A stretch of 64,000 nucleotides of DNA from Patescibacteria group bacterium (GCA_036794765.1 DAIRGB010000001.1:11752-75751); one strand, 5' to 3'. Counted from the stretch's first letter, positions 6,530-63,497 are shown. The notes: generated by a model from the letters alone, not told the origin. Numbers and translations are program-made.

Positions 6530-6608
6530 ACATTTAAAACTCTTTAAAACTAAAATAGTAACAGTTTGTCAGGGTTTGTAAGTGTTTATAAGAGTTTTTA
6601 AGGGTTTT
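6530..6608. repeat. Phased A-tract repeat spacer made of roughly 10-bp units such as TTTAAAACTC and TTATAAGAGT, present in both orientations.
   Basis: TTTAAAACTCTTTAAAACTA is followed by an inverted GTTTATAAGAGTTTTTAAGGGTTTT. The same word family occurs at 8276-8355, 9163-9252, 10070-10160 and 32620-32742. Confidence 0.5.
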
Positions 6609-7403
6609 ATGCAAAGGTATTTCAAAATATTATGGCGGATTGCGCGGATGTCGTTGGCGACTAGTTTGATGTATAAAACTGATTGGATATTGGGGGTATT
6701 TACAACATTTTCATATTCAGGTTTGCAGATATTTTTTATTGCAATGCTTTTTAGTTCAGGGGGATTGACGAGAATTGTTGGTTTTAGTGTTTGGCAGATG
6801 GTTTTAGTTTTTATGTTTGGGCAGATAATATATTTTTTTGCATTTACTTTTATATTTGAAAATGTTGGTTTGTTTCGTTATAAGGTAATGCAAGGAGAAT
6901 TGGACCATTTTTTACTGAGGCCAATTTCGCCGGTGTTCTTGTTGTCATTTCAAAAATTTGGTTTGGTTGAGGCTTCGGCAATAATTACATATACTTTGGC
7001 GACGTTGATATATTTGTTTATTAGAACGGATGTGTTATTTTCTGAAACGCAATGGTTGACGATTGGTGTGATATTTATTGGTTCTTTGGTTTTGATGTCT
7101 TGTATTTATTGGATCGCCGGGTTGATATTTTTTTATTGGCCAAATTTTTTGGCAATATGGTGGATGTTAAATAATATTAGTGATGTGGCCAAATATCCTC
7201 GTAGGATTTATCCCTCAGCGATGCAATGGTTTTTAATATTTTTTATTCCATTATTTTGTATGGTAAATCCGCTTTATGATGTTATGGATGGATCATTTGA
7301 TTTTTGGCGCGGTTTGGATATTTTTTTAGTAATAACGATGTTTGTTTTAATATATTTAATGATGTGGAAAGATGGTTTGAGACGTTATTCTTCGGCGGCT
7401 TAA
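6609..7403 (+). CDS. ABC-2 family permease of subtype B. The ORF track starts at 6582. The start proposed here is the Met of MQRYFKILWRIARMS, which matches the paralog N-termini.
   Basis: Conserved N-terminus KILWRIARMS...Y and C-terminus GLRRYSSAA. Six hydrophobic helices. Confidence 0.65.
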   Translation: MQRYFKILWRIARMSLATSLMYKTDWILGVFTTFSYSGLQIFFIAMLFSSGGLTRIVGFSVWQMVLVFMFGQIIYFFAFTFIFENVGLFRYKVMQGELDHFLLRPISPVFLLSFQKFGLVEASAIITYTLATLIYLFIRTDVLFSETQWLTIGVIFIGSLVLMSCIYWIAGLIFFYWPNFLAIWWMLNNISDVAKYPRRIYPSAMQWFLIFFIPLFCMVNPLYDVMDGSFDFWRGLDIFLVITMFVLIYLMMWKDGLRRYSSAA

Positions 7404-7482
7404 ATAGTCAATTAACAATGAATAATTAACAATTAAAAATTGATTGTAAAAAGTAATATTTTCCAAATAATTTTTTTAAAAA

Positions 7483-8274
7483 ATGAAAAAATATAAAAGA
7501 CTGTTTAGTAATTTTATTCAGATGAATCTGGCTTATCGCGAGAATTTTTTTGCTGAGTTGGTGATGCGGTCACTGGGGTTTTTTATTATGATTTTTTTGT
7601 GGAAAGCGGTGTATGCACAGAGGACATCGATTCAGGGATTTAGTTTCAATGAATTGCTAACATATTTTTTGATTGTGGAAGTTTTTCGACATTTGTTGGA
7701 AGCGAAAACTTTTTTGGAGATTAAAGAGGGGGTGCAAAAGGGGACGATTGCCAATTACTTATTATTACCGATTGATTCGATTAAAATATATTTTTCCCGG
7801 ACATTGGCGAGGAGTATTTTGTCGTTTGTCTTTTTTATTGTGCCGGTTTTATTTTTGATATATGGGACGAAAATTTTTGTGTTGCCACCGAGTATTTGGT
7901 ATTCGTTGATGACAATCGGGATGGGAATTATTGCGATGTTTATGAGTTTGTTGTTGTACACGATATTTGGCAGTATAGCTTTTTGGACGGTGGAAACGGG
8001 AAATATTATTTGGGCGTTCAATTTTATTGTGATGTTTTTGGCGGGAAAGATGATCCCTTTACAGTTTATGCCTGGTTTAATTAAAACCTTAGTTGGATAT
8101 TCGCCATTGGCGTCATTGTTCAATTTGCCGGCGACTTTGTATTTGGGAAAATTATCTTATACAGAAGCTTTGATCCAATTTGGGGTGCAGATTGGTTGGC
8201 TTTTGATTCTTTATTTGTTACTCAGATGTATTTGGCGAAAAGGGCTTAGGAGAATGGAGTTGGTGGGAGGGTGA
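7483..8274 (+). CDS. ABC-2 family permease of subtype A. Its N-terminus NLAYRENFFAELVM resembles that of the permease at 3712-4542.
   Basis: 263 aa, polytopic. C-terminus GLRRMELVGG. Confidence 0.6.
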   Translation: MKKYKRLFSNFIQMNLAYRENFFAELVMRSLGFFIMIFLWKAVYAQRTSIQGFSFNELLTYFLIVEVFRHLLEAKTFLEIKEGVQKGTIANYLLLPIDSIKIYFSRTLARSILSFVFFIVPVLFLIYGTKIFVLPPSIWYSLMTIGMGIIAMFMSLLLYTIFGSIAFWTVETGNIIWAFNFIVMFLAGKMIPLQFMPGLIKTLVGYSPLASLFNLPATLYLGKLSYTEALIQFGVQIGWLLILYLLLRCIWRKGLRRMELVGG

Positions 8275-8275
8275 A

Positions 8276-8355
8276 AAACTTATCAAACTTATCAAACATA
8301 GCAAACAAAAACCCTTATAAACTCTTTAAAACACTTTTAAACTCTTAGAAACTAT
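8276..8355. repeat. Phased roughly 10-bp A-tract repeat spacer.
   Basis: ATCAAAC, AGCAAAC, CTTATAAACT, CTTTAAAACA, CTTTTAAACT and CTTAGAAACT follow one another at about 10-bp spacing. Confidence 0.5.
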
Positions 8356-8364
8356 CATTATGAT

Positions 8365-9159
8365 ATGCAAAAGTATGGAAAAATTTTGTGGCGGATAATC
8401 AGAATGGCGGTGATGCGGGATATGATGTATAGGATAGATGTTTTTATAAGCTCGCCCGCGGCTTTTTTTTATATTTTGATAAATATTTTTTGGATAAAAT
8501 ATTTATTTGGGGCGATCGGAGATCAAGAAATTGCCGGGTATAACAATTGGGATTTTTATCTGCTGTTGTTTACTGGACAAATTGGGGCGGCGTTGTTTTT
8601 TGCCTTTATACAAAAGAGTTCCAATGCTGTTCGAGAGCAAATATTGAAAGGAGATTTGGATTATTTTTTGATAAAACCGGTTGCAAGTTGGTTTTTGATA
8701 AGTTTTCAGGACATTAATTTCCGAGTGTTTGTTTCTATTATTGGATATTTGGTAATTGGGGTTCCTTGGATTATTGTTGCCGGGAATTATCATTTTAATA
8801 TTTGGCAGTGGATAAACATTGTTTTGATATTGGTTTTTTCATTTGTTCTATCATTTGCGGTGCGATGGATAGTAACTTTGTTAAGTTTTTTTTGGGATAG
8901 ATTTGATGCCGGGATATTTTTTATTGAGTCGTTGGAAAATGTAAGTTCCTTTCCAAAATCAATTTTTCCCGGGAGTTTGCAATTCATTTTTTTGTATATA
9001 TTGCCGATGGCAATGATAAATGCACCGATTTTTCAGGTAATTGACTATTCATGGAATATTAGTTTGTTGATTGAGATGATTGGGGTGATGATCATTTTTC
9101 TTCTATTGCTGGGGTTGATGTGGAGGTTTTCATTAAAGAAATATGGGTCGGCGGGGTGA
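8365..9159 (+). CDS. ABC-2 family permease of subtype B.
   Basis: N-terminus KILWRIIRMAVMRDMMY. C-terminus KKYGSAG. Polytopic. Confidence 0.65.
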   Translation: MQKYGKILWRIIRMAVMRDMMYRIDVFISSPAAFFYILINIFWIKYLFGAIGDQEIAGYNNWDFYLLLFTGQIGAALFFAFIQKSSNAVREQILKGDLDYFLIKPVASWFLISFQDINFRVFVSIIGYLVIGVPWIIVAGNYHFNIWQWINIVLILVFSFVLSFAVRWIVTLLSFFWDRFDAGIFFIESLENVSSFPKSIFPGSLQFIFLYILPMAMINAPIFQVIDYSWNISLLIEMIGVMIIFLLLLGLMWRFSLKKYGSAG

Positions 9160-9162
9160 GAG

Positions 9163-9252
9163 AAGCAAAAACTTAACAAACATATCAAACATATCAAACG
9201 TATTAAACACTTAGAAACGCTTTTAAACGCTTAAAAACACTTTGAAACTGTA
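9163..9252. repeat. Phased roughly 10-bp A-tract repeat spacer.
   Basis: AACATATCAAACATATCAAACGTATTAAACACTTAGAAACGCTTTTAAACGCTTAAAAACACTTTGAAACTG. It can be aligned with the spacers at 8276 and 10070. Confidence 0.5.
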
Positions 9253-9269
9253 ATATTTAAAATAAATTA

Positions 9270-10064
9270 ATGAAAAGTTATTGGAAAATATTTTGGCGGG
9301 TGGCGAAGATGTCGTGGATGGTGACGGCCAGTTATAAAATTGATCTATTGGTGGGTTATACTACATCATTTATTTATTTTTTGTCACACTTGGGAATGGT
9401 ATATATTTTATTTCAGATATCTGAAAATAAGACAATTGCTGGTTTTGGTCAATTTGAGTTTTATTTTATTTTCGGTTTGGTTGAAGTATTATGGTTTATT
9501 TGTTTTGGTTTCTTTTATATCAATTCAAATAAATTGATTGATCAAATAGTTGAAGGCAAAATTGATTTTCTTTTGTTAAAGCCAAAAAATAATTTATTTT
9601 TAGTGATTTTTCAAGAAATAAACTTGGACGATTTATTGGCGATGTTTTTTTATCTTTTTTTGACTTTGGGATTGGTGAATTACATGGATTGTTGGGAATG
9701 GTTGATCAATAATTTGTGGTCGATAATAATGGTAGAAATCTGTTCAATAATTTTACTGTTTCTTTTAATTTGGATTGGTTCGTTTATCAATTTTTATTGG
9801 CCGCGTTTTATGGTGTTTAGATTGATGGTGATACACAATTCTGATATTTCACAGTTTCCCAGGCAAATATACCCTAGGTGGATGCAAGTAATATTGATGT
9901 GGGTTTTTCCATTACTTTTGATGACTTCGCCAGTTTTTGATTTGTTTTCCGGGGGTTTAAATGGGTGGTTTTGGTTGAATGTTTTTCTAGAGATTGTTGC
10001 CTTGTCATTGATTTTCATTTTAATGTGGCGGGATGGTATTCGGAGATATTGTTCGGCGGGGTGA
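9270..10064 (+). CDS. ABC-2 family permease of subtype B.
   Basis: N-terminus KIFWRVAKMSWMVTASY. C-terminus IRRYCSAG. Polytopic. Confidence 0.65.
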   Translation: MKSYWKIFWRVAKMSWMVTASYKIDLLVGYTTSFIYFLSHLGMVYILFQISENKTIAGFGQFEFYFIFGLVEVLWFICFGFFYINSNKLIDQIVEGKIDFLLLKPKNNLFLVIFQEINLDDLLAMFFYLFLTLGLVNYMDCWEWLINNLWSIIMVEICSIILLFLLIWIGSFINFYWPRFMVFRLMVIHNSDISQFPRQIYPRWMQVILMWVFPLLLMTSPVFDLFSGGLNGWFWLNVFLEIVALSLIFILMWRDGIRRYCSAG

Positions 10065-10069
10065 GGGAG

Positions 10070-10160
10070 TGAAAAACATAACAAATTTATCAAACATATC
10101 AAACTTAGCAAACACTTAGAAACTCTTTTAAACTCTTTGAAACGCTTTTAAACTGTAATT
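10070..10160. repeat. Phased roughly 10-bp A-tract repeat spacer.
   Basis: ACAAATTTATCAAACATATCAAACTTAGCAAACACTTAGAAACTCTTTTAAACTCTTTGAAACGCTTTTAAACTG. Confidence 0.5.
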
Positions 10161-10168
10161 ATTAAAAA

Positions 10169-10966
10169 TTGATGAAGAAATATTTTAAAATATTTTGGCG
10201 GGTGGGGAGGATGAGTTTGATGCGGGATATGATGTATCCGGCTGATTTTTGGACGGGGAGTTTTTCGGGAATTGTGTTTATGGCTTCGCAAATGTTGTTG
10301 ATCTGGTTTTTATTTAAAACCAGTCAGTCGGAGACTATTGCGGGATATGACATGTGGCAGATTTATTTTGTATATGGAGTTTATAATTTTGTTGTTGGTT
10401 TGGCTTATGTCTTTTTGTTGAATAATTCTTGGTCGTTCACGAGTGGAATAATTGCTGGCTTGCTTGATCTGGATTTGATTAAACCGATAAATAGTTTTGT
10501 GGCATTGTATATGAAAGAATATGAAATGGTGGTGGAGGTGATTAGTGTATTGGTTTCGTTTTTCTTGAGTTTTTGGTTGGCGATAAGCGGCAGAGTTGAA
10601 TTGAATTGGACTCAGGTTGTTTTGATATTGGTGGTAATGTTACAATCTTTTTGCCTGTATTGTGTATTGTATATTATTAGTTCAGTAATTGAACTTTTTG
10701 TTAGCCGATTTTCGGTTTTAAGGTTTATGATGCATGAATTTGATGTGGTGACAAGTTATCCTCGGCGAATGTATCCGTTGGCGATGCGGTATATTTTGTT
10801 GTTTGTCTGGCCGTTTTTTATGATTGTTAGTCCGATTTATGATATTTTTGATCAAACGTTTGATTTTGAGAAAATATTTATTTGGTCGGGAGTGAACATT
10901 ATTTTTTTATTGATATTAATCTTGATGTGGACAAGTGGTTTGAAAAAATATTGTTCGGCGGGATAG
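10169..10966 (+). CDS. ABC-2 family permease of subtype B.
   Basis: N-terminus KIFWRVGRMSLMRDMMY. C-terminus LKKYCSAG. Polytopic. Confidence 0.65.
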   Translation: MMKKYFKIFWRVGRMSLMRDMMYPADFWTGSFSGIVFMASQMLLIWFLFKTSQSETIAGYDMWQIYFVYGVYNFVVGLAYVFLLNNSWSFTSGIIAGLLDLDLIKPINSFVALYMKEYEMVVEVISVLVSFFLSFWLAISGRVELNWTQVVLILVVMLQSFCLYCVLYIISSVIELFVSRFSVLRFMMHEFDVVTSYPRRMYPLAMRYILLFVWPFFMIVSPIYDIFDQTFDFEKIFIWSGVNIIFLLILILMWTSGLKKYCSAG

Positions 10967-32608: not shown

Positions 32609-32619
32609 GATAATAGATA

Positions 32620-32742
32620 ACAAACCCTTATAAACTCTTTAAAACTCTTTTAAACACTTAAAAACTATGGGAATTATGAGAGTGTTTATTGTAAAGTTTG
32701 TAAGAGTATATAAGGGTTTCTAAGTGTTTATAAGAGTTTTGT
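32620..32742. repeat. Imperfectly palindromic block of the 10-bp phased A-tract repeat family. It lies upstream of tRNA-Asp.
   Basis: AAACCCTTATAAACTCTTTAAAACTCTTTTAAACACTTAAAAACT is followed by the same word set in inverted orientation, GTTTATAAGAGTTTT etc. Confidence 0.5.
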
Positions 32743-32834
32743 ATTTTGTGGTTTCATTGAAAATATTTTCATGCTTTATGTAATGAGGTGGATTTATTGT
32801 TCCAGGTTTGCTAATATTTATATGTAAATTTATT

Positions 32835-32909
32835 GGAGCCGTAGTTCAGTTTGGTTAGAACGCAGCCCTGTCACGGCTGAGGTCGCGGGTTCGAGCCCCG
32901 TCGGCTCCG
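32835..32909 (+). tRNA. tRNA-Asp with anticodon GTC.
   Basis: Acceptor stem GGAGCCG pairs with CGGCTCC. Discriminator G. Anticodon stem-loop CAGCC/CTGTCAC/GGCTG. T-loop GGTTCGAGCCC. Confidence 0.85.
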
Positions 32910-32917
32910 CTTCGTTT

Positions 32918-32950
32918 TGAGAGGAAAACCAATGGTTTTCCTCTCAACGT
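32918..32950 (+). terminator. Hairpin downstream of tRNA-Asp.
   Basis: GAGAGGAAAACC, loop AATG, then GGTTTTCCTCTC. Confidence 0.4.
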
Positions 32951-33037
32951 TTCACTGCTCTCCTTTCCTTTTCAAGGAACCAAAAATCCCGAAATGAATT
33001 CGTTGATTTTTGATAATAGATAATAAGCAGAATATAA

Positions 33038-33065
33038 AAAACCGAGTGATCGGTTTTTTTTGATG
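33038..33065. terminator. Bidirectional terminator hairpin, A-run / CCGAGTGATCGG / T-run. This is copy 1 of a direct repeat of about 28 nt.
   Basis: AAAAAACCGAGTGATCGGTTTTTTTT. An identical core recurs at 33955-33982. Confidence 0.55.
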
Positions 33066-33137
33066 GGGAGAACTGGTAAGATGAGGGTTTTGGGCATGAA
33101 AAAAGGGAGTTTCTTGCTCCCTATTGTTTATAGCGGC

Positions 33138-33326
33138 TTATTTATATCTGTTTTTGTATGCCCAGTGAAGGGCATTTGCAATTAACATTGCAAAAAAGTA
33201 AGCAATGCAAATTATTGATCCTGGCGGATAAAATTTTAGACAAAATATAAAAGTAATTGCCATAATTGTTCCACCAAAAATTGGTGCCCATTTGTTTAAA
33301 AATTTATCTTCTCTAGACAGTTTCAT
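33138..33326 (-). CDS. Small two-transmembrane-segment protein of unknown function.
   Basis: 62 aa with two hydrophobic helices. It overlaps the upstream gene by 4 nt (ATGA). Confidence 0.4.
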   Translation of the reverse strand: MKLSREDKFLNKWAPIFGGTIMAITFIFCLKFYPPGSIICIAYFFAMLIANALHWAYKNRYK

Positions 33327-33796
33327 TTTTTTTCTCCCTTCTTTTTTATTTTCTGGATTGTTCTTTTGTGTTCGGGGGTGAATTTGTATCCCCCGATTTT
33401 TAATTCATCAAGTATCTGTTCAAAGGTCTGAATATTAATTTTTTGTAATTTTACAAAAGAATGTAATCTTTCAAGATCCAGTTTCATTTCTTCGCTGTCG
33501 TGATTGGCAAAAATTTTTTCGCAGCAGTCATCGAATATTTCCTGAAAATTGACAATTTTTAATTTTGCAATTTTTTTGAGGTATTTTCCCTCAATGATGT
33601 TATTTCTCAAAATGCAACAGAAATAGTTTTTAAGATTAAGTCCTGGAGGTATTTCGTAAATTTCCTGAATGACTTTTTTCTGAATGTTGTTGTCAAAATT
33701 CAAGAAGTTTTCTAGATCGTCTGCAAAATCTAGCCAAGGTTCATCTTTTTCCATGGCTTTTAGGAGTTTTTTCGTTTCTTCTAACATTTTTTTCAC
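33323..33796 (-). CDS. Hypothetical cytoplasmic protein.
   Basis: 157-aa ORF, charged and helical. Translationally coupled to the small membrane protein. Confidence 0.45.
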   Translation of the reverse strand: MKKMLEETKKLLKAMEKDEPWLDFADDLENFLNFDNNIQKKVIQEIYEIPPGLNLKNYFCCILRNNIIEGKYLKKIAKLKIVNFQEIFDDCCEKIFANHDSEEMKLDLERLHSFVKLQKINIQTFEQILDELKIGGYKFTPEHKRTIQKIKKKGEKK

Positions 33797-33954
33797 TCTC
33801 TTTCTTTTTAAAATTCATTCTTTAAGACCCAAGAACCAAAGCCCTTTCTTGCTTTGGTACGATATTTTGGACTTAAAGAACAATAACTTTGTAGCATATA
33901 TATATATTGTTGTCAATCTTGTACTGGTGGTATTTTTTGAAATAATTATTATAA

Positions 33955-33982
33955 AAAAACCGAGTGATCGGTTTTTTAGTTT
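33955..33982. terminator. Copy 2 of the bidirectional terminator hairpin.
   Basis: AAAAAAACCGAGTGATCGGTTTTTT. Confidence 0.55.
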
Positions 33983-34272
33983 GATTTTTGTGTTATTTTT
34001 GTTGTTTGTATGAATTTTTCATGATGGAATGATAATTACAATGATTTTTAGAACTTTTTCAGCATTATTTTGGAAATATTTTATTATTGCTAGACGCTTG
34101 TTAATGATTTCTAGTATAAATCGCATGCGACCCAGAATGGACAGTATATGATATTTGTTTCTCTTTTAGTGTTCCAAAATTTTTTAAGATATTCTTTGCC
34201 AAGATCTTTATATTTATTGTATTATCATTATTGTTGTATTCTACCATTTCAAATTAATATTTTGACTATATC

Positions 34273-34301
34273 TTGACAATATTAATTAATAGTGTTATAG
34301 A
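34273..34301 (+). promoter_or_regulatory. Candidate sigma70-like promoter. TTGACA is followed by a 17-nt spacer and then TATAGA.
   Basis: TTGACA at 34273-34278 and TATAGA at 34296-34301, about 30 nt upstream of the ATG at 34332 in an AT-rich gap. Confidence 0.3.
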
Positions 34302-34331
34302 TTTAGTATTATATCTTTTATCATTTTTTGT

Positions 34332-35408
34332 ATGGAAAAATTTTTCAAAGAGGAAAAAAACGAAATAGTAAGTAATGGAGAAAATAGGAATAGTCATTTT
34401 AAAGAAGGAATAACTAAAGCTTATAAATATATTAGTATGCTTGATGACGATATAGTTAATAAAGAAATAGTTAATGGGGAGGAGGATATTGCTTTGTTGT
34501 ATTCAAGGTATTATAAAGCATCAAAACAAATAGCCATTGATTTAGGTGTAGAAAATGAATTTGGAATTGATGCCTTAACTGATTTGCTTGTTAGTGGAGA
34601 ATATAAAAAATATCAAACAGATATAATATTTCTGACGGTATTATTTTTTAGAATAAAGAATATTAAGTTGAAAATTATTACTGAGAACAGAAAGAAAAGT
34701 TATTTTTATATGGACGAACAAAAGAAAGACGGTACTCCCTTTATCGAAACAATTCCTGATAAAAATAATGATATTGATAAGGTGATTTTCAAAGAATATT
34801 TTTGTTGGTTAACAAATCAAATAAATGAAAAATATGGAGATAAAATAAATGCTTTAGAAAAAGATTTTTTGTCGTTTTTTGCGGAGGGGGATGATGTTAA
34901 AGAGATTAGAAAGAGGTTAATAGAAAAAGGGTATACCCAGCCATGGACTTCACTTGGTTTAAAAGGTTTTAAAGAAAAATTATTGAAATGGGGATTGATT
35001 GATGACCCTAATTTTAAGAGAATAGAATGGAAAAAGAATAATGTTTCAAATAGGGATGTGTTAGAAATTTATCTTAAAGAGTCAAGATATTCTTTTTCTG
35101 AGTATGAAGGTCGGTTAGTCGATGTATTTCTAAAAAATGGGAAAATTGATTTTAGCAGTGATTTTTTGGATGTAGATTTAACAAGTCTGGCTCAGAGTTT
35201 AAAAAAGAGATTAAGAGCTCATATGGCTAAGAGAGGTTTAAATTGTAGAGATTTTTTTGATTTTCTTAATAAGGTATCTATAGATGCAAAAAAAAGAAAT
35301 ATTGATTCAATTGAACCTGAGAGATTTGAACCGGAGTTGGTAAATTTTGAGAATGATTTGAGGCCATCTTGTTATAGGGGTGGAAATATTGAGGATTGGA
35401 TGCTTTGA
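34332..35408 (+). CDS. Hypothetical protein within the tRNA-Asp-adjacent islet.
   Basis: 358-aa ORF. No motif I recognise. Confidence 0.45.
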   Translation: MEKFFKEEKNEIVSNGENRNSHFKEGITKAYKYISMLDDDIVNKEIVNGEEDIALLYSRYYKASKQIAIDLGVENEFGIDALTDLLVSGEYKKYQTDIIFLTVLFFRIKNIKLKIITENRKKSYFYMDEQKKDGTPFIETIPDKNNDIDKVIFKEYFCWLTNQINEKYGDKINALEKDFLSFFAEGDDVKEIRKRLIEKGYTQPWTSLGLKGFKEKLLKWGLIDDPNFKRIEWKKNNVSNRDVLEIYLKESRYSFSEYEGRLVDVFLKNGKIDFSSDFLDVDLTSLAQSLKKRLRAHMAKRGLNCRDFFDFLNKVSIDAKKRNIDSIEPERFEPELVNFENDLRPSCYRGGNIEDWML

Positions 35409-35527
35409 TATTGTATTTTTTGAATTAATAGACTCTATATCAAAACTTTGATATAGAGTTTTTCTTTAAGTATTATCAGGTTTTGTTTTATACTGGGAAG
35501 TAGTTTAATTATTTTATTTTTTTCTAT

Positions 35528-54999: not shown

Positions 55000-55074
55000 A
55001 CAATTAACAATGAATAGAGACATTTTTTCTGTAAATTATTAATTTTCTTTGTTAATTGTTTATTTTGTGTGTGT

Positions 55075-55145
55075 TCCGGGATCGTCTAATGGTAGGACAG
55101 CGGCCTCTGAAGTCGTCAATCTTGGTTCGAATCCAAGTCCCGGAG
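55075..55145 (+). tRNA. tRNA-Gln with anticodon CTG.
   Basis: Acceptor stem TCCGGGA pairs with TCCCGGA. Anticodon loop CTCTGAA. T-arm CTTGGTTCGAATCCAAG. Discriminator G. Confidence 0.75.
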
Positions 55146-56726
55146 TTTTCCTGAACGAAGCATCTTGTGTGAATGGCTATTGACCATATTGGTGCTTGAT
55201 GTCACCTGTTCGAATTTGTTTTTGGTATTTTCGGATAAAATTTCTATATTCGAATTTCGGAGTATATTGGTTAGCTTGGCTAACATTTCAAATGGTTTAG
55301 ATAGCTTTACAGATAGAATTCCGTTTTCAATTTTCATTTCATCAAAGAGGACTTTAAGTAGTTCTCTTTTGTTGTCTGGTAATCCATTTTCAAATATTAT
55401 ATTTGCCTGTTGAGTCAATTCATAAATTGAAATGCCAAGCTCGTAATAAGCATTTTCTTTTCTGGTTAGTCTATCAATGGCTCTGGAAATGTCTTCTTTT
55501 TCTTTCGTGAATTTTTGGTTTAATTCTTTGTAAGTATTATCAGAAATAAGACCATCTAATTTGTCTATGTATAAAGTGTCTAGTCTTTGAGAAAGTTTAC
55601 TGTATTGGATGTGAAGTTGTTTGGCTGATGCCTCCCTAGTGACTATTTCTTCTTTGTGGTCTTCTTTTAATGACATTCTAATCCATTCATCAATTTTAGG
55701 ACTGGTTATTTTGAATCTATCGGTAATATCTGAGACTTGTTCTTCGATTTCGGCTTGTTTTGCCCATGTTTTTTGTTGGCAATTATTTTTGTGATTGCAG
55801 TGACCATATACTATCCCTTTTTGGATTTCCCAAGTAATGGTCCCATTGCATTCTTTGCAGGTCATTAATTTTTGGAAGACATAATGGTGTTTATTGTATT
55901 TTGGAGTTGTTTTGGAAGTAAGGTTTAGTTGGACTTTTTCAAATACTTCTTCTGTGACAATTGGCTCATGTTTTCCAGGATATATTTCATTTTTCCAAAG
56001 GATTTTTCCACTATAGAATGGTCTGGTAAGGATATTATGAAGCGTGCTTTTTGCCATTCTTTTACCTTTAATTGTTCTGAGTCCTTGTTTAAACATGATT
56101 TGACTTAGTTTCTTTAAAGAGTAATTTCCTGTCGCATACAGTTCAAATAACTGTTTGATTAGAGGTGCAATATTTTCATCAATAACTTGGATTTTGTGAC
56201 CTTTTTCTCCTATAGTCTTGTATCCCATTGGTGCTTTATTTGGTAGCCAGCCTTGAGATATTTTTTCTTTAAAACCTTTTTGCACTTCTTCGGACAAATT
56301 ATTGGTGTAAAATCGGGCAATGGCGACTTTCATGTCCCAAACTAGATTTTCGTGTGCTTTGGTATTTTTATTGAGAACAAAAGATTCTTTGACAAAATGG
56401 ACCTCGTGTTTGGGATTGCTTTGGACCCAGTCATTGATAATTGCTGCGTCTTTAAGGTTTCTGGTTAGTCTGTCTATCTTTTCGCATACTATAACTGAAA
56501 TTTGGTTTTGTTTTAGATATTTTAGCATTTCTTGAAAGGTGTCTCGGATTTTTTTGCCACTGGCTGATTCAGAAATACTGAATATTTTGTTTATTCGGAA
56601 TTTATTTTGAGAATAGTCTTTTAATAGTTTTTCTTGAGCTGGCAAGGAATAACCTGTTTCTTCTTGGTCCTTAGATGACACTCGGCAATATAAGACGGAT
56701 TTTGGCATATTGTTGATAGTTTTCAT
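55116..56726 (-). CDS. Large serine recombinase (phage-integrase type).
   Basis: Resolvase catalytic domain VLYCRVSSKDQ...VIVCEKIDRLTRN. Recombinase domain. Zinc ribbon CKECNGT...CNHKNNC. C-terminal coiled coil. The 3' end overlaps tRNA-Gln. Confidence 0.8.
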   Translation of the reverse strand: MKTINNMPKSVLYCRVSSKDQEETGYSLPAQEKLLKDYSQNKFRINKIFSISESASGKKIRDTFQEMLKYLKQNQISVIVCEKIDRLTRNLKDAAIINDWVQSNPKHEVHFVKESFVLNKNTKAHENLVWDMKVAIARFYTNNLSEEVQKGFKEKISQGWLPNKAPMGYKTIGEKGHKIQVIDENIAPLIKQLFELYATGNYSLKKLSQIMFKQGLRTIKGKRMAKSTLHNILTRPFYSGKILWKNEIYPGKHEPIVTEEVFEKVQLNLTSKTTPKYNKHHYVFQKLMTCKECNGTITWEIQKGIVYGHCNHKNNCQQKTWAKQAEIEEQVSDITDRFKITSPKIDEWIRMSLKEDHKEEIVTREASAKQLHIQYSKLSQRLDTLYIDKLDGLISDNTYKELNQKFTKEKEDISRAIDRLTRKENAYYELGISIYELTQQANIIFENGLPDNKRELLKVLFDEMKIENGILSVKLSKPFEMLAKLTNILRNSNIEILSENTKNKFEQVTSSTNMVNSHSHKMLRSGKLRDLDSNQD

Positions 56727-56743
56727 TTTAAATGCTCCTAGAA

Positions 56744-57127
56744 TTAATAAAATAAAGAATTATTGTATTTAGTATGTATTTTTATTTTTGGATATTTTTT
56801 AAGGCAATTATTCAATATATGGGTGTCATAGCGGTTGCGTGTTAATCGAGATATATCTGAGCATAGCAGATGATTAATATTTAATTTATTCATTGTTTGG
56901 AATAATTCTGGAATTATTTTATCTTTTGGCAAGCCTGTAAATTTTAAAGAAGAGACAATTTGAAATTTTTGACCTAAATAATCAATTAAATTCTTTTCTT
57001 GAAGGGATAGTTTTTGTAGATTATCATTTTGTTTATGACAGGCGGAAAACGAGAAACAAATTGCTTGGTTATTCATAATGGTGTTTATTAGATAAATAAA
57101 AAAGGGGCAACCTACCTTGTTGCCCAA
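56744..57127 (-). pseudogene. Degenerate or truncated serine recombinase N-terminal domain fragment.
   Basis: 127-aa ORF with LLCSDISRLTRN, which matches the resolvase DRLxR motif. It lacks the RVS-type catalytic Ser context. Confidence 0.35.
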
Positions 57128-57341
57128 TCAATTAAACCACTAGAAGAGGATTAATTGTGGAAGTAGATTGCCCCGTTTTTGTCCACAAAGAACATAAAAG
57201 ACGAGTTCTCTTCCATGGTTTAATTAATTGATTGAGCAACACTTATATTGTATCAAGTAAAATGCAGGTGATACAATGTTGTTGTGATTCGAGTGTGGCA
57301 AAATTTCTTATCTATAATAGAACGAAATTTTTGCGACACTC

Positions 57342-58352
57342 TTATTTGTGTTCAGGCGCAGGATATTCTTCTGTAAATCGAGGGTGAGTATAGTCTAGTT
57401 CTGGGTAGAGGCAGTTTTTTTCTCCTCTGGTTTCGATAATAATTTTTTCGGAGATTAACTCCTTGTAGGCAGTATTGAAGGTTTTTTCTCCAATATCATA
57501 TCCGTATTCTTTGATTTTGCCGTAAAGTTGGGTTTTGTTCATTTTTTCAGTGTTTTTCTGGAGAATTTCGACGATTGCATTTTTAGAATCAATTTTTTTG
57601 CTGGTCTTGATTTCGTTGTAGCCAGCAAATTCAAAGTCTAGAAAATCCTCATTATTTTTTATTAGCAGTTTGAAACTATTAAGCTCTTGCTGTTGTCTGA
57701 GTTTAGTTTGTTCAATCTCTAAACTGTCTTCGACTTTCGTTACAGCCAAGTGACAATCTATGGATGCTAGAATATCGGATGAACCTCGCATGTTTTGGGA
57801 GTTGGAGGATTTATTGTGCATATTCTGTTTGCGATGGTGGTGGGTCACTATAACAGTGATACCATGTTTCGTCATTTTCTTTAGATAAGCAAATACCTCG
57901 GCCATCTTTTTTGCATCGTTTTCATCGGCGTTGTGTATTCTTACCAATGAATCGAAGATGACTACTTTGTAATCGTTTTCCAAACAATACTCGATTAAGG
58001 TTTGGCATACATTTTCTATTTTTATACCAAGTATTGAAGTGACGGATATTGGTAGTTCAGGGGATGTCTGTAGTTTGACGAATCTATCATGGAGCAGTCT
58101 TTCACCATTTTCTTCGTCTATAATTAGGATTTTGGATTGTGCGGTGCGAAATTGTCCAAAGACAATGTCTCCAATTGCTATTTTTTTGGCCATGTATAAG
58201 AATAGCCATGTTTTAAAACAACTCGGTTGGCCGGAGATAACTGTAATGCCATTAGTTGGTATTAGGTATTCTACAACCCAATTTAATGGTGGGAATTCCT
58301 TGGTTAATAGCTCTTTTAATGGAATAACGTGCTTGCTAAAAATGTTTGTCAT
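57342..58352 (-). CDS. RecA-fold ATPase (RepA/AAA_25-like) with a C-terminal winged-helix domain. It is a candidate replication protein of the element.
   Basis: Deviant Walker A SGQPSCFKT. Walker B KVVIFDSLVRIH. Conserved TVIVTHHHRK. Confidence 0.5.
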   Translation of the reverse strand: MTNIFSKHVIPLKELLTKEFPPLNWVVEYLIPTNGITVISGQPSCFKTWLFLYMAKKIAIGDIVFGQFRTAQSKILIIDEENGERLLHDRFVKLQTSPELPISVTSILGIKIENVCQTLIEYCLENDYKVVIFDSLVRIHNADENDAKKMAEVFAYLKKMTKHGITVIVTHHHRKQNMHNKSSNSQNMRGSSDILASIDCHLAVTKVEDSLEIEQTKLRQQQELNSFKLLIKNNEDFLDFEFAGYNEIKTSKKIDSKNAIVEILQKNTEKMNKTQLYGKIKEYGYDIGEKTFNTAYKELISEKIIIETRGEKNCLYPELDYTHPRFTEEYPAPEHK

Positions 58353-58766
58353 GATAACTCCTATAATTAAAATAAAATATTAGATATTTGGATACATTGA
58401 CGATTATTTAGGGAGGTCCTTTGCATCGATGGTCTTTTGTTTGTTGGTTATACATATTGAGTAAAATGCTTGAAGTTTTTATTAAAAAATCGGCAAGAAT
58501 TTTTGTATCTTCCAATGATAGCTTTTGGTTGTATTCTTCTTCTATGATTTTTTGGAGATTGAGAATGGTTTGTTCGGAGAGCATTTTTTTGCAATAAAAA
58601 ATAATACTAGCCTAAAGACTAGACTAGTATCAAAATCTAAGGAATTTAATTCGTGAAAACTCTAGAAAGTTCCAGAAATTTCCATCTTTTTTAATTTTTT
58701 CAACCATAAAAAAACTCTCATTTGTAATATCGAATGAGAGTAGTTATCTAGTTTTTTCTAATTTTT

Positions 58767-59339
58767 TTACACTTGTATAATTTCTGCTTTATTATTTTTT
58801 TCCATTATTGATATTTTTAGCGGAATTTTTGCTGATATAGCTCGTGTTAAATTTTTTAAACCTTTAATGATTGATTTGTCATCTTCAGTTTTATGGTTGT
58901 CTAAAAAAGCATTTTTTACATATTGTTTCATTTTGTCTAAGTGAAAATGGAATTTATATGGTCTTGAAGCTGTTTTTGATTGATTGTAAATATATTCTAA
59001 TATTATTGAGTTGATTTCTTTATAAGGTCTATACTCTGTTTTTGAAAACTTTATACTATTTTTGTATATTATTACGTTTTCTTTTTTGTTGGATTTATTT
59101 GATTTGCCTGAATTTGTAAGTGGTTTGAATATTACATAGTTTTCCGTAAGTTTTTTTATATGTATTTTGTTAATGTTTTGAAGATAATCGATAATTTTAC
59201 GTTGTGTTCCTCTAGTCATGATAATATTGTCTCCTCCATCTGATAAGGTGATGAAGTTATAAGTAACATATCCCTCTTTGTTTGGTAATAATTCATTGAT
59301 TATTTTATTTACTACATTGAGTTCCCATTTAGTTATCAT
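58767..59339 (-). CDS. Hypothetical protein belonging to the element.
   Basis: 190-aa ORF. K/N-rich. Confidence 0.4.
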   Translation of the reverse strand: MITKWELNVVNKIINELLPNKEGYVTYNFITLSDGGDNIIMTRGTQRKIIDYLQNINKIHIKKLTENYVIFKPLTNSGKSNKSNKKENVIIYKNSIKFSKTEYRPYKEINSIILEYIYNQSKTASRPYKFHFHLDKMKQYVKNAFLDNHKTEDDKSIIKGLKNLTRAISAKIPLKISIMEKNNKAEIIQV

Positions 59340-59402
59340 ATTGGTTTAAAAATTATTATTGCTTTATTTATTAATTATGTTCTGATACGGTCAAAGTAAT
59401 AG

Positions 59403-59987
59403 ATGTCTAATAATTATTATATGAGAAAAAGTATTTATAACAAAAAAGTAGTGATGGCTTATCTGAACGAAGATTTTGATTTATTTGGAGAATATCTGGA
59501 AAAAAGGGACCCAGTGGCTTTGGTCCTTGATGCAATAGAGAAGGGTAATTTTAATCGAGATGCGGCAAGACTAGCCAATATATCAGAATCTGAGTTTTAT
59601 CTTTGGCAACAGGAGAAAATTTCTTTAAATAAAGTTAATCCATACTATAAATTGGAATTTTCGGAGTCGGTTTCCAGGGCTAAAGCAAGAAGAATCAATT
59701 TTCATTTGACTAAAATAAGAGAAGCGAGTGATAAAGATTGGCGAGCCAGTGCTTGGATGTTGGAAAAGATAGAACCAAAAATATATGGTAAAAATACGCA
59801 AATTGGTTTTAACTTTCAACCTCCTCGTATTACAATTGCTACTCAGGAAATTCCAGAGAGGACTGAAGAACAAAAGGAAAAAGATAAAGTGTATGCATCT
59901 GGTTCTGAGGATGTCCAAAAATTTAAAGAAGTAATGGAGGAAATTAAGAGAGATTTGGAAGAAAAGGAGAATCAGGATTATTCCTAA
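59403..59987 (+). CDS. Hypothetical protein with an N-terminal HTH-like segment. It could be a terminase small subunit or a regulator.
   Basis: RDAARLANISESEFYLWQ helix-turn-helix-like. Charged C-terminus. Confidence 0.4.
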   Translation: MSNNYYMRKSIYNKKVVMAYLNEDFDLFGEYLEKRDPVALVLDAIEKGNFNRDAARLANISESEFYLWQQEKISLNKVNPYYKLEFSESVSRAKARRINFHLTKIREASDKDWRASAWMLEKIEPKIYGKNTQIGFNFQPPRITIATQEIPERTEEQKEKDKVYASGSEDVQKFKEVMEEIKRDLEEKENQDYS

Positions 59988-60253
59988 GTGGTGAAATATT
60001 TGATAAATTTTGCTAATATAAAGCCGTAAGTAACAATTCAAGTGCCTAAACTTTGTATTTTATACAAGGCATGGCAGTAAAAACTCAGATACATAAAGAT
60101 GGTCCTTTTGACCAGCTTACTTGTATCTGAGTATATATCCGAAAGGATATATGGTGGACCCGAAAGGGAAAGCCGAGCTGTGTTGGAAGGACCGTTTTTG
60201 GAATGATTTCAACATAGCAGAATAATTTTCTGTTTATTTTTTAAATATATGGT

Positions 60254-60865
60254 GTGACTATGAAAAATTTCTTCAACAAATACACGATTATTGTCGGTGC
60301 TATTTGCTTGGTAGTTGGTTTTTCTTTTGGGGCGGGCGGTTATTATCTGCTTTTGCCTTACAGAACACTAAAAATTACTTCCAATGTTCCAATTCCTGGA
60401 TTGGATTTGATGACGGATACGGCAAAAGAGATATCAAATATTGTTAAACCCGTAGTAGAGAAGAAAATAGGTGAGGATTTTATGTTGGATGATAATATCA
60501 AAGTCACTTACAAATGGACCAAGGAAGAAACAAATCGACTAAGTGACGAAAATAGTTATTTTGGCTATGACCCAAAAGAAGGAATGAAATGGGTAATTTT
60601 GGCTTTTGATGCCGAGAATATTGGAAAAAAAGCTGTAAGTTTAGATATAAACAAAAATAAAGATTTTGTATTATTTGATGAAAATGACAGAGAATATGAG
60701 TCTGATTATGGATATTCTCTTGATAATTATCTTTTTAATTATCAGCTTGTTCCTGCGTTGAAATCTGAAAAAATAGTTGTCTTTTCTGTTCCCAAAGATA
60801 CAAACAAATTCAAATACATTATCTACCATGGAAAGAATGAAGATTATAAATTGATTTTGGGATAA
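60254..60865 (+). CDS. Exported protein with an N-terminal transmembrane or signal anchor and a beta-rich domain (DUF4352-like).
   Basis: Hydrophobic N-terminus IIVGAICLVVGFSFGAGG. Beta-strand-rich remainder. Confidence 0.45.
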   Translation: MTMKNFFNKYTIIVGAICLVVGFSFGAGGYYLLLPYRTLKITSNVPIPGLDLMTDTAKEISNIVKPVVEKKIGEDFMLDDNIKVTYKWTKEETNRLSDENSYFGYDPKEGMKWVILAFDAENIGKKAVSLDINKNKDFVLFDENDREYESDYGYSLDNYLFNYQLVPALKSEKIVVFSVPKDTNKFKYIIYHGKNEDYKLILG

Positions 60866-60880
60866 TACTAAGCAAACACT

Positions 60881-61324
60881 ATGAAAAAATGTCGTTATTG
60901 CATGGAAGAAGTTCAAGATGAAGCAATTAAGTGCAAATATTGTCAAAAAAGCTTATTACCTGAAGGTGTGGCAATTACTGTAATTTCCGATAATGAAAAA
61001 CAAATTGCACGAAGTATTGCAGATTATCTTACTATATCAGGTATTGTTTGGCTTATTATTGGAGCCTTACAAATTGTCGGATTAGTTACTATTATTGCAG
61101 GTATTTGGAATATTATTGTGGCAATATCTCGGTTAAATGCTTCAACTAGGGTATCGAATTTCGATAAAAATATACCAAGGCAATTTGAGAGTATGAGCGG
61201 ATTGATTATTGTTTTGATAGTTAATCTATTCTTGGGCGGAATAATAGGAGTAATTGTCGTTATTTTTGACTTTATTATTCGAGATAAGATTTTATCCAAT
61301 CGTCATATTTTTGAAAGAGATTAA
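60881..61324 (+). CDS. Zinc-ribbon membrane protein.
   Basis: CRYC...CKYC ribbon followed by two or three transmembrane helices. Confidence 0.5.
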   Translation: MKKCRYCMEEVQDEAIKCKYCQKSLLPEGVAITVISDNEKQIARSIADYLTISGIVWLIIGALQIVGLVTIIAGIWNIIVAISRLNASTRVSNFDKNIPRQFESMSGLIIVLIVNLFLGGIIGVIVVIFDFIIRDKILSNRHIFERD

Positions 61325-61332
61325 ATATTTTT

Positions 61333-61626
61333 ATGGATAAATGTCCATTTTGTGCTGAACAAATACAATCAGGTGCTATTTATTGTCATCACTGTAAATC
61401 AGATTTAAAAAAACCTGAGGAAAGAAAAGTATATCGGGATATACAACAGAATAATTCTAATAATTCCTGTTTATGGATAGGTGGAGGAGGATGTTGTTGC
61501 TTATTAGTCGTAATTATTTCAGTATTTATGTTTATGTTCTTTCTGAATGGAATATTTTTAATGGGTAATGCAGCAGTAAAAAATTCAAATCAAACATCTG
61601 TTACAACTATTACACCCAACCCATAA
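61333..61626 (+). CDS. Zinc-ribbon membrane protein, a paralog of the upstream gene.
   Basis: CPFC...CHHC ribbon followed by a Gly/Cys-rich transmembrane helix. Confidence 0.5.
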   Translation: MDKCPFCAEQIQSGAIYCHHCKSDLKKPEERKVYRDIQQNNSNNSCLWIGGGGCCCLLVVIISVFMFMFFLNGIFLMGNAAVKNSNQTSVTTITPNP

Positions 61627-61800
61627 CGACCCGTGAGGTGAATTATTTTATGTGGACTTGATAAAGTCGCCCGAATTACGCGCGAAATTTTTTTTGGGTT
61701 AATAAAATCTTAAGAACAGAAGTGGTAAAATAAAGATGTTTATAAACAAGCGGTATATTTTTCAGAAATAATATTTAAGATATTTATTGATTAAAACAAG

Positions 61801-63486
61801 ATGGCAAAAAAAGATTATACAAACTGGGACAGAAAAGACTTAATTAAAGAGATTGAGCAACTTCGCAAACGCAAGAAATATGGGCTTGTTTGGGAAGAAA
61901 AGCCGGAAAATGTTGTTGAGCAATGCAAAACCGAATTACCAGTTTTAGAAGAAGTCAAAGACAAAGAAATAATTACCGATCCCGACAAACCAGTAAATTT
62001 ATTGATTGAGGGCGACAATTATCATGCTCTTTCTGTCTTGAATTACACTCACAAAGGTAAAATTGATGTTATTTATATTGATCCGCCATATAACACAGGG
62101 GCAAGAGATTGGAAATATAACAATGATTATGTTGATATAAATGATCAGTGGAGACATAGCAAATGGTTATCGTTCATGGAAAAAAGATTAAAGCTTGCCA
62201 AAAATCTGCTCAAAAAAAATGGTGTTTTAATTTGTACGATTGATAAAAATGAGCAAGCTAATCTCGGGGTTTTGTTGCAAGAAATTTTTAATGGAAAAGA
62301 AATAGTATGTGTTACGATCATCCATAATCCTGGCGGTATTCAAGGTAAAAACTTTTCTCATACAAACGAATTTGCTTATTTTATTCATCCTCAAAATGGT
62401 AATTTTATATCAACTATTGCTAGAGATGATGTACCACCGACAGCTTTTCGAGATTGGGGAAAAGAAAGTTCAAAAAGAGAAGCGGCGAAAACTTGTTTTT
62501 ATCCAATTTTAATTAAAGACGAATCTATAGTTGGATTTGGAGGAGTTTCTTTAGATGATTTTCACCCAAAAGGCTCAAACATATTACGAAAAGACGGAAT
62601 TATTGAGGTTTACCCCGTTGATCAAAAAGGCGTTGAACGAAAATGGCGTTTTGGTCGAGAAACCGTTGAGGATATTAAGGAAGAGCTGATTTGCAAAAAG
62701 GTAAAAGGTAAATATTCAATATTCAGAGAGAAAAAAGATTATCGATGGAAAACTGTTTGGACTGAAACAAAATACAATGCAAATGTATATGGAACAAAAT
62801 TACTTAACAATATTATTGAAGCAAAATTTCCTTATCCCAAATCATTATATGCAGTAATGGATTGCGTAAAGGCAGTTATACACGATAAACAAAATTCAAT
62901 AGTGTTAGATTTTTTTGCTGGATCTGGTACGACAGGTCACGCTGTTTTAGAACTTAACAAAACAGATAACGGAAATCGAAAATTTATTTTGTGTACAAAC
63001 AATGAAGACAACAACGGCGAAGGAACAAAAATAGCAGACGACATGTGCTATCCAAGAATAGAAAAAGTAATAAATGGCTATAAAGGTTTGCTAGACGGGA
63101 AAAAATACCAAGGCTTAAATGGAAATTTAAAATACTTTCGCACAACATTTGTATTTGCAGACCCAACAGATAAAAACAAAATTGCTCTAACCGAAAAAGC
63201 AATGGAAATGCTTTGTGTAAAAGAGGATACTTTTGGAGAAGTAAAATCAACAAAGCAATACAAGATTTTCAGAAACAAGAAGCGATATACTGGCATTGTT
63301 TTTGATCATCAAGCGATAAATGATTTTAAAAAAGAAATTGCTAAGATTGACGGCAAATTCAGTCTTTATATTTTCTCGCTTGGCGACGATACTTTTGATG
63401 AGGAGTTTGAAGATATGAAGAAGAAAGTAAAATTATCACCCATACCAGAGGCGATACTTCGAGTTTATCGCAGAATATTTAAATAA
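61801..63486 (+). CDS. mod: Type III restriction-modification Mod subunit, a beta-class N6-adenine or N4-cytosine DNA methyltransferase.
   Basis: Motif IV IDVIYIDPPYNTG precedes motif I DFFAGSGTTGHAV. Confidence 0.75.
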   Translation: MAKKDYTNWDRKDLIKEIEQLRKRKKYGLVWEEKPENVVEQCKTELPVLEEVKDKEIITDPDKPVNLLIEGDNYHALSVLNYTHKGKIDVIYIDPPYNTGARDWKYNNDYVDINDQWRHSKWLSFMEKRLKLAKNLLKKNGVLICTIDKNEQANLGVLLQEIFNGKEIVCVTIIHNPGGIQGKNFSHTNEFAYFIHPQNGNFISTIARDDVPPTAFRDWGKESSKREAAKTCFYPILIKDESIVGFGGVSLDDFHPKGSNILRKDGIIEVYPVDQKGVERKWRFGRETVEDIKEELICKKVKGKYSIFREKKDYRWKTVWTETKYNANVYGTKLLNNIIEAKFPYPKSLYAVMDCVKAVIHDKQNSIVLDFFAGSGTTGHAVLELNKTDNGNRKFILCTNNEDNNGEGTKIADDMCYPRIEKVINGYKGLLDGKKYQGLNGNLKYFRTTFVFADPTDKNKIALTEKAMEMLCVKEDTFGEVKSTKQYKIFRNKKRYTGIVFDHQAINDFKKEIAKIDGKFSLYIFSLGDDTFDEEFEDMKKKVKLSPIPEAILRVYRRIFK

Positions 63487-63497
63487 TTGGAAAAACT

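Follow-up and report, generated by a model that had tools for sequence, protein, structure and literature searches.

How can strains that are almost identical in sequence carry unrelated genes at the same place, and what do the hairpins that recur within one of them mark? This question is raised by a short islet of genes next to tRNA-Asp(GTC) in a 64,000-nucleotide stretch of DNA (hereafter the window) of a Patescibacteria group bacterium (GCA_036794765.1, DAIRGB010000001.1:11752-75751). An initial annotation had described an accessory islet beside this tRNA gene, with a pair of small genes bracketed by identical hairpins and a longer orphan open reading frame (ORF) behind them. Comparison with relatives bore out the accessory nature of the islet, because a strain whose flanks are 99.1–99.9% identical to those of the window holds a different gene inside. 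In our reading, the gap between tRNA-Asp and the next gene, encoding an M16 peptidase, is probably a strain-variable flexible islet similar to a minimal mobile element, in which whole units are exchanged by homologous recombination in the conserved flanks and no recombinase is encoded by the element.

Strain-level variation of gene content in Patescibacteria is hard to see in fragmented metagenome-assembled genomes (MAGs). At the small site described here, nucleotide resolution shows strains that are nearly identical but have different orphan genes within a common expression frame; one strain has two stacked versions, and one version is decaying. The variability seen at this site is of an ordinary kind, and we do not regard the site as a toxin-antitoxin or phage lysis module. 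Known forms of genome plasticity gain a new example here, well resolved in a lineage of Patescibacteria (candidate phyla radiation, CPR), and no new molecular mechanism is revealed. It provides a compact case for the turnover of orphan genes in very small genomes, and the site is worth watching in pangenome or defence-island surveys.

Alternative genes in one expression frame

The islet occupies the position X in the gene block LytR–DUF5656–PpiC–tRNA-Asp–X–M16 peptidase–Ndk, which is conserved in a Patescibacteria lineage. Useful relatives were found by exact-protein look-ups; a profile search of contigs with the M16 alignment gave only relatives of ≤44% identity and did not pick up the close genomes. 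The synteny from PpiC and tRNA-Asp to M16 and Ndk was observed in the window and in the genomes L004, L085, L086, L088, L100 and L102. tRNA-Asp itself (32835–32910, plus strand; called by ARAGORN, with an Rfam tRNA match of 67.7 bits) bounds the variable site on the left, as a conserved anchor, in every syntenic relative. The arrangement of the window is common to three independent assemblies (L001, L002 and L003), whose concordance ruled out an assembly artefact.

The filling of the slot differs among these genomes, and the cassette singled out by the initial annotation is not conserved in all of them. The window carries a pair of genes for proteins of 62 and 154 amino acids (aa) plus a gene for a 358-aa protein. 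L102 and L103, which belong to the same species as the window, contain one unrelated minus-strand ORF of 267 aa (2476–3279 in L102) and no 358-aa segment. An unrelated ORF of 118 aa (7285–7641, minus strand) was found in L100 (about 90% nucleotide identity in the core). The more distant L004 (about 75–82% identity in the core, 88% amino-acid identity in M16) has an orthologous pair of 63 and 156 aa, without the second hairpin and without the 358-aa gene. Other unrelated genes fill the slot in L085, L088, L097 and L099 (M16 identity 59–66%), and the slot is empty in L086 (M16 identity 66%), with 28 nt from the tRNA to M16. Pairwise blastp of the slot versions gave no similarity. The alternative slot proteins of the relatives showed no family match and no recombinase or transposase domain, and the 267-aa protein had no match in phage records or IMG/VR.

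The borders of the exchanged tract are sharp. In the left flank, the window and L102 differ at 2 positions over the first 2232 nt and at 6 as far as 33096, and dense differences begin at 33110. On the right, identity is 99.07% from 35458, so that the tract specific to the window relative to L102 spans 33110–35457. The abrupt switch from about 99.9% identity to dense differences at 33096–33110 and at 35457/35458, with a raised density of differences towards both borders, fits homologous recombination but does not prove it. No recombinase, integrase or transposase domain was detected in the islet ORFs, and the neighbouring genes encode PpiC and M16. We suggest that alternative transcription units with unrelated orphan genes are swapped between strains at the gap between tRNA-Asp and M16, most likely through homologous recombination in the flanks.

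The versions share more than their position. In the window, L004, L100 and L102, the slot has a homologous frame. Its elements are a first hairpin (hp1) and a second one of terminator-like form (T2) on one side of the ORF or ORFs, and a 5' stem-loop leader with a TTGACA promoter on the other. hp1 (33036–33066, no strand assigned) is a bidirectional terminator-like hairpin of the form A6-CCGA-GTGA-TCGG-T8, which is retained 3' of tRNA-Asp in all four genomes (with a GTAA loop in L004). A similar terminator (AAAAACAACCGA...TCGGTTGTTTTTTTGAT) directly follows tRNA-Asp in the outgroup L088. Together, these two observations indicate that hp1 is the edge of the frame and not the scar of a cassette. 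From its sequence we read hp1 as the terminator of the tRNA-Asp unit, as a possible back-up for the convergent slot operon, and as the left edge of the first unit described below. The stretch after hp1, TTGATGGGGAGAACTGG, also belongs to the conserved frame. T2 (33104–33122, minus strand; AGGGAG...CTCCCT followed by a minus-strand T-run) was found by the terminator scan just after the 62-aa ORF and exists in all four alleles; the left border with L102 falls inside it.

At the other end of the frame, the predicted 5' leader stem-loop of the slot operon (33815–33883, minus strand; fold z = -3.1) is kept in all four alleles, and 2 of its pairs show compensatory changes. The putative slot promoter (33888–33916, minus strand; TTGACA-17 nt-TGC-TACAAA) was read from the sequence. 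Alignment of the four genomes showed its TTGACA hexamer and TGCTACAAA extended -10 to be unchanged throughout, with a variable spacer between them. The terminators, promoters and leader of the islet are presumed to be active. Homology of L100 with the window breaks off no more than a few codons from the ORF ends.

A bolder interpretation of the frame is that it would be a dedicated, always-expressed landing pad, in which unrelated orphan genes are captured, stacked and exchanged among Patescibacteria strains, with the hairpin possibly serving as a recombination site for a host enzyme. If true, this would be an integrase-free cassette system and a trial place for new genes, perhaps with phage or host-interaction functions. 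We regard it as improbable.

Minimal mobile elements are among the known systems closest in kind to the exchange that we favour. In these, two conserved genes enclose whole-gene cassettes that differ and were taken up by homologous recombination (PMC3082526); for those of Neisseria (Saunders & Snyder 2002; Snyder et al. 2007) we follow the definition as it is relayed in PMC3082526. The present site resembles the Neisseria elements in its conserved flanking genes, its strain-specific cassettes, the lack of mobility genes and the attribution of exchange to homologous recombination of the flanks. It differs from them in occurring in a Patescibacteria MAG lineage, in the promoter, leader and terminator frame that the versions share internally, in having two versions in tandem, and in that all of its cargo genes are orphans. 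Replacement flexible genomic islands, defined together with additive ones in PMC10872708, likewise hold unrelated content at the same position within one species, are often bounded by a tRNA gene and show raised differences at their borders. In contrast to them, the present site comprises one transcription unit of 1–2.3 kb instead of tens of kb, and has no glycosyltransferase or surface-polysaccharide genes.

Repeated hairpins and tandem units

The pair of small genes in the window was originally described as bracketed by two identical hairpins of about 28 nt. An exact repeat in two copies was confirmed, but it measures 24 nt (AAAAAACCGAGTGATCGGTTTTTT) and lies at 33036–33059 and 33954–33977, 2–5 nt away from the positions first given. 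Each copy folds into a stem of 10 bp closed by a GTGA loop and is flanked by runs of A upstream and T downstream (A6 in both; T8 after hp1 and T6 after the second copy, hp2). Shuffled sequences gave an expectation of zero matches, and no third copy was present in the 64-kb window even when 3 mismatches were allowed. Over these 64 kb, the hairpin is hence not a generic terminator. No hairpin copy exists at the hp2 position (33954–33977, no strand assigned) in L004, L100 or L102, and positions 33950–33977 of the window are identical in 28 of 28 nt to hp1 of L100.

A second repeat accompanies the hairpin. A 17-nt direct repeat on the plus strand occurs in the window in two copies only (0.07 expected), the left at 33930–33946 (GTATTTTTTGAAATAAT) and the right at 35413–35429 (GTATTTTTTGAATTAAT). 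Homology with L100 and L102 ends at 33939, inside the left copy, and resumes at 35458/35459. The intervening 1.5-kb segment opens with hp2, 8 nt after the left 17-nt repeat, and closes with the right copy, which is followed by T3, a 14-bp hairpin after the 358-aa gene (35430–35461, plus strand; terminator scan), and then by the promoter region of the M16 peptidase. An insertion sequence was considered for this segment and rejected, as it has no terminal inverted repeats and no transposase similarity. The 17-nt repeat was also rejected as the target duplication of an insertion sequence, being longer than typical.

Much of the DNA behind hp2 turned out to be the remains of a gene. The stretch of 33978–34331 (354 bp) had been described as about 350 bp of noncoding AT-rich DNA with a candidate promoter; its length held, and a promoter match was located at 34273–34301. 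However, 33980–34212 (minus strand) aligned as a pseudogene relic of the 3' third of a 267-aa-type slot gene. Its local alignment with the 267-aa ORF of L102 scored 70, compared with 16.8 ± 2.4 for shuffles (maximum 30) and a maximum of 19 for real-sequence controls, and blastn gave 66% over 265 nt. The relic has an in-frame stop and a frame change. On the evidence of these alignments, most of the supposedly noncoding stretch is a decayed gene of the 267-aa type.

The slot of the window is therefore laid out, as the repeats and the relic delimit it, in two consecutive units. Unit 1 (33036–33946) runs hp1–T2–62-aa gene–154-aa gene–leader–promoter–17-nt repeat, and unit 2 (33954–35429) runs hp2–relic–promoter–358-aa gene–17-nt repeat. 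Where the window has its 1.5-kb segment, L100 and L004 have a short spacer that is homologous between them, although L100 is closer to the window (about 90% nucleotide identity) than to L004 (about 78% between the window and L004). The segment with the 358-aa gene is therefore a gain in the lineage of the window. We propose that one unequal or illegitimate recombination joined the right end of one version to the left end of another and so stacked the units. The second copies of the 24-nt hairpin and of the 17-nt repeat would both arise from such a single event, and hp2 would then be a by-product of stacking and not a terminator needed at its place. The initial suggestion that the hairpins are repeats left by an insertion thus survives in part: the copies do mark the boundaries of duplicated or inserted units, but hp1 belongs to the conserved frame and is not a cassette scar.

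The other suggestion for the identical copies was a reused terminator module, with hp2 kept or independently arisen between divergent units and its identity to hp1 maintained by selection rather than produced by duplication. The simple form of the hairpin (A-run, short GC core, GNRA-type loop, T-run) does recur convergently in unrelated genomes, and the islet is rich in terminator-like hairpins, since a scan of 28–40 kb found 17 where 7.0 ± 2.4 were expected. However, both divergent promoters point away from hp2, which lies upstream of them, so that no transcript would have to be terminated there, and the relatives manage without it. Its match of 24/24 to hp1, and of 28/28 to hp1 of L100, is more than function demands. 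Moreover, the relic directly follows hp2 much as the intact 267-aa gene follows hp1 and T2 in L102. We consider a reused terminator highly improbable.

Site-specific insertion offers a third explanation. Here the hairpin would serve as an attachment site at which a recombinase encoded elsewhere integrated a circular form of the 918-bp unit with the 62-aa and 154-aa genes, or else of unit 2, leaving the two hairpins as attL and attR. The exact identity of the copies, loop included, agrees with this, and so do the tandem units, because repeated insertion at a single site produces such an arrangement, for example in additive flexible islands, where repeats recur (PMC10872708). The same window also encodes a large serine recombinase (55116–56726), but this enzyme belongs to a separate element at tRNA-Gln, and no recombinase lies in or beside the islet. 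L004, L100 and L102 each have one unit with one hairpin, and the same-species breakpoints are in T2 and near 33939/35458, outside the hairpin. In a metagenome scan, the hairpin was found at the L004 locus and otherwise as an ordinary terminator with a GTAA loop in unrelated organisms (contig GC 0.27–0.60), so that it is no signature of a mobile element; it is absent from IMG/VR. We therefore judged site-specific insertion to be rather unlikely. The metagenome scan also led us to reject the hairpin as the marker of a mobile-element family: its form is simple and convergent, even though, by sequence matching, its exact sequence is limited to two copies in the window.

The site is like additive tRNA-linked islands and tycheposons (PMC10872708; bioRxiv 10.1101/2020.12.28.424599) in having a tRNA neighbour and short direct repeats that separate tandemly added units; unlike in those, the repeat is a terminator hairpin and not a tRNA 3' end, and the islet lacks a tyrosine or serine recombinase. 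An island of that canonical kind is found at tRNA-Gln, elsewhere in the window. Integron cassette arrays share with it short units of one or two ORFs, palindromic separators and much cargo of unknown function. No integrase or attI was found in or beside the islet, whose neighbours are PpiC, M16 and Ndk; for the remainder of the window the search was not exhaustive. The attC sites of integrons are imperfect palindromes of about 57–141 nt with conserved core sites, whereas the present hairpin is a perfect stem of 24 nt in all with a 4-nt loop, in which no attC core motif was seen. Also, in contrast to promoterless integron cassettes, each unit here has its own consensus-like promoter.

Several points weigh against the exchange and stacking of units that we favour. 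Homologous recombination normally replaces a unit, so stacking should need an extra illegitimate crossover, which is so far hypothetical. The structure a-U1-b-a-U2-b fits either order of arrival of the two units, and the relic is only about 66% identical to the gene of L102. The occurrence of unrelated ORFs in one homologous promoter and terminator frame, with breakpoints at the ORF ends, is not accounted for. Finally, the comparison covers only five to six related genomes.

The orphan genes of the islet

The first unit contains the two-gene minus-strand cassette of the initial annotation. The downstream gene encodes a basic protein of 62 aa (33138–33326, minus strand) and the upstream one a soluble protein, predicted to be mostly helical (33323–33787, minus strand), and their ORFs overlap by ATGA at 33323–33326. 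Overlap and the length of 62 aa agreed with the first description; the upstream protein, given there as 157 aa, is more likely one of 154 aa from the ATG at 33787, because this start is conserved in the orthologue and was chosen by gene callers. The GTG start needed for the 157-aa version is not conserved. In the 62-aa protein, a PPG turn interrupts a hydrophobic block of 43 residues (residues 13–55), which makes the two transmembrane segments first proposed for this protein plausible. Its ends are basic, with an isoelectric point (pI) of 9.7 and a C-terminal KNRYK.

Both genes have been maintained by selection. The 154-aa protein is 69% identical to its orthologue in L004, with a ratio of nonsynonymous to synonymous divergence (dN/dS) of 0.13, close to that of the neighbouring PpiC (0.14). 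The 62-aa orthologues are 44% identical with a dN/dS of 0.33. The dS between window and L004 was 1.1–2.0 throughout; values of the pair are similar to those of neighbouring core genes, and synonymous sites are saturated. The gene pair is under purifying selection.

The pair had also been compared in its proportions to toxin-antitoxin or holin systems. In such a module, of the toxin-antitoxin, abortive-infection or holin-like type, killing would be the task of the membrane protein, under the control of the soluble one. Like type II toxin-antitoxin pairs and class II holins, it consists of genes of such sizes, two small ORFs translationally coupled by ATGA, one of them encoding a small two-segment membrane protein with charged, here basic, ends; its location in a strain-variable site also agrees with the idea. 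Unlike these systems, it matches no profile family, is not accompanied by lysin or phage genes and does not show a patchy distribution in multiple copies: it is a single-copy pair at one fixed position in two genomes only, under purifying selection like PpiC. The alternative versions at the slot are single soluble proteins without a membrane partner.

Homology searches gave the module no support either. The 62-aa, 154-aa and 358-aa proteins had no match in Pfam, PHROGs, PADLOC or NCBIfam. Among 5.8 billion clustered proteins, only two clusters of the 154-aa protein are known, itself and the L004 protein. HMMER with the 154-aa protein over 1.84 billion representatives found no remote homologue beyond this known relative; these passes also returned a self-match and one repetitive junk protein. 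Searches of PDB, phage records and IMG/VR with it gave no match. The AlphaFold model of the 154-aa protein is of low confidence (predicted local distance difference test, pLDDT, 57.8), and Foldseek of this low-confidence model against PDB and BFVD found no match. We give a toxin or holin module only a very slight chance. Our guess is that the soluble 154-aa protein and the two-segment 62-aa protein form a membrane-associated accessory pair; the other slot genes may be, as a further guess, strain-specific factors under diversifying pressure from phages or hosts.

In the second unit, the 358-aa gene (34332–35408, plus strand) is preceded by a candidate promoter, TTGACA-17-TATAGA with an upstream TG (34273–34301, plus strand), which was identified by its match to the consensus. 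An ORF of 358 codons in DNA of 28% GC is far beyond chance length (about 1e-15, our own estimate from base composition). The gene is specific to the strain lineage of the window and absent from L004, L100 and L102. Its first description as an orphan held up, as its protein matched only itself among the 5.8 billion clustered proteins and nothing in IMG/VR, phage records or PDB. The AlphaFold model of this protein (pLDDT 39.6) is too poor for use.

The islet is poorer in GC than its surroundings. GC in the 1-kb bins at 33–35 kb was 0.31 and 0.26, compared with about 0.36 elsewhere, and both GC and the GC of third codon positions (GC3) of the islet genes are below the host (0.22–0.34 versus 0.33–0.47). 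GC3 was 0.22 for the 358-aa gene, 0.22 for the 62-aa gene and 0.34 for the 154-aa gene, the last near the low end of the host range. Across 1–55000 of the window, plus-strand GC3 skew was +0.55 to +0.8 regardless of gene orientation, which points to a replication-strand mutation bias and makes the skew usable as a clock of gene residence time. The 358-aa gene has a host-like skew of +0.62. The 154-aa gene is skewed more weakly in the same direction (+0.31 in the window and 0.46 in L004; host +0.6 to +0.7), and the skew of the 62-aa gene is about 0 over few sites.

By the skew of the 358-aa and 154-aa genes, we rejected a recent transfer from a distant donor. Horizontal acquisition had been suggested from the location beside a tRNA gene. 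There is no integrase in the islet and no tRNA 3'-end repeat (no second copy of the 22-nt tRNA 3' end with ≤3 mismatches), and the pair is orthologous in L004 at dS >1 under purifying selection. Based on dN/dS, dS and GC3 skew, the islet genes are long-term residents or come from close relatives, and are not recent imports from distant donors.

The tRNA-Asp trailer and other features of the window

Between tRNA-Asp and hp1 lies a conserved 3' trailer (32911–33018, plus strand), consisting of a perfect 15-bp palindrome at 32917–32947 and a pyrimidine-rich tail. It is 98% identical to that of L004 over 108 nt, despite the saturated synonymous sites between both genomes. The trailer was found in L102 and is missing from L100, a closer relative than L004. 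Folded together with hp1 it gave z = -5.8. Rfam matched the tRNA only and no family for the trailer, which likewise had no match in IMG/VR. The trailer could be a small RNA, a regulatory site or a small mobile insert. A 21-codon micro-ORF within it (start ATG, GTG or TTG in three genomes; stop TGA or TAA) is not favoured, because its zero synonymous changes indicate a constraint on the nucleotide sequence itself.

Several other repeats were noted around this tRNA gene. An imperfect palindrome with 50-nt arms, 78% complementary, is located upstream of tRNA-Asp at 32617–32744 and is made of phased units of about 10 nt such as CTTATAAAC and GTTTCTAAG. It is partly kept in L004, and L100 has other sequence at that place. 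The same palindrome recurs between tandem ABC-2 paralogues at 6555–6608, 8308–8355, 9204–9249 and 10106–10154; it is a dispersed intergenic repeat family. The paralogues are five tandem ORFs of 263–264 aa (6609–10966) that stop shortly ahead of tRNA-Gly (11027); a Pfam match, ABC2_membrane_6, was obtained for the first, and the others are assumed to be paralogous by their equal size and spacing.

In two outgroups, a truncated tRNA-Asp-like sequence lies just upstream of the real tRNA-Asp (L085, 6123–6190; L088, about 6915–6975). It has parts similar to the acceptor and D arms, and a 7-bp hairpin in place of the anticodon arm. Short tandem repeats of the GGAAATT/GGAAATTG type exist in the spacers of relatives, right of the slot in L004 (9736–9800) and upstream of tRNA-Asp in L100 (6830–6960), and none is present at the corresponding positions of the window.

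At the far end of the window, tRNA-Gln (55074–55146) is directly adjoined by the gene of the 536-aa large serine recombinase mentioned above (55116–56726, minus strand), which overlaps the tRNA 3' end. Beyond it, 55074–64000 contains an AAA_25 protein, orphan ORFs with a GC3 of 0.21 and a DNA methylase, and across this region the GC3 skew falls from about 0.65 to between 0.4 and -0.06. The region looks like a canonical integrated mobile element or prophage that runs off the end of the window.

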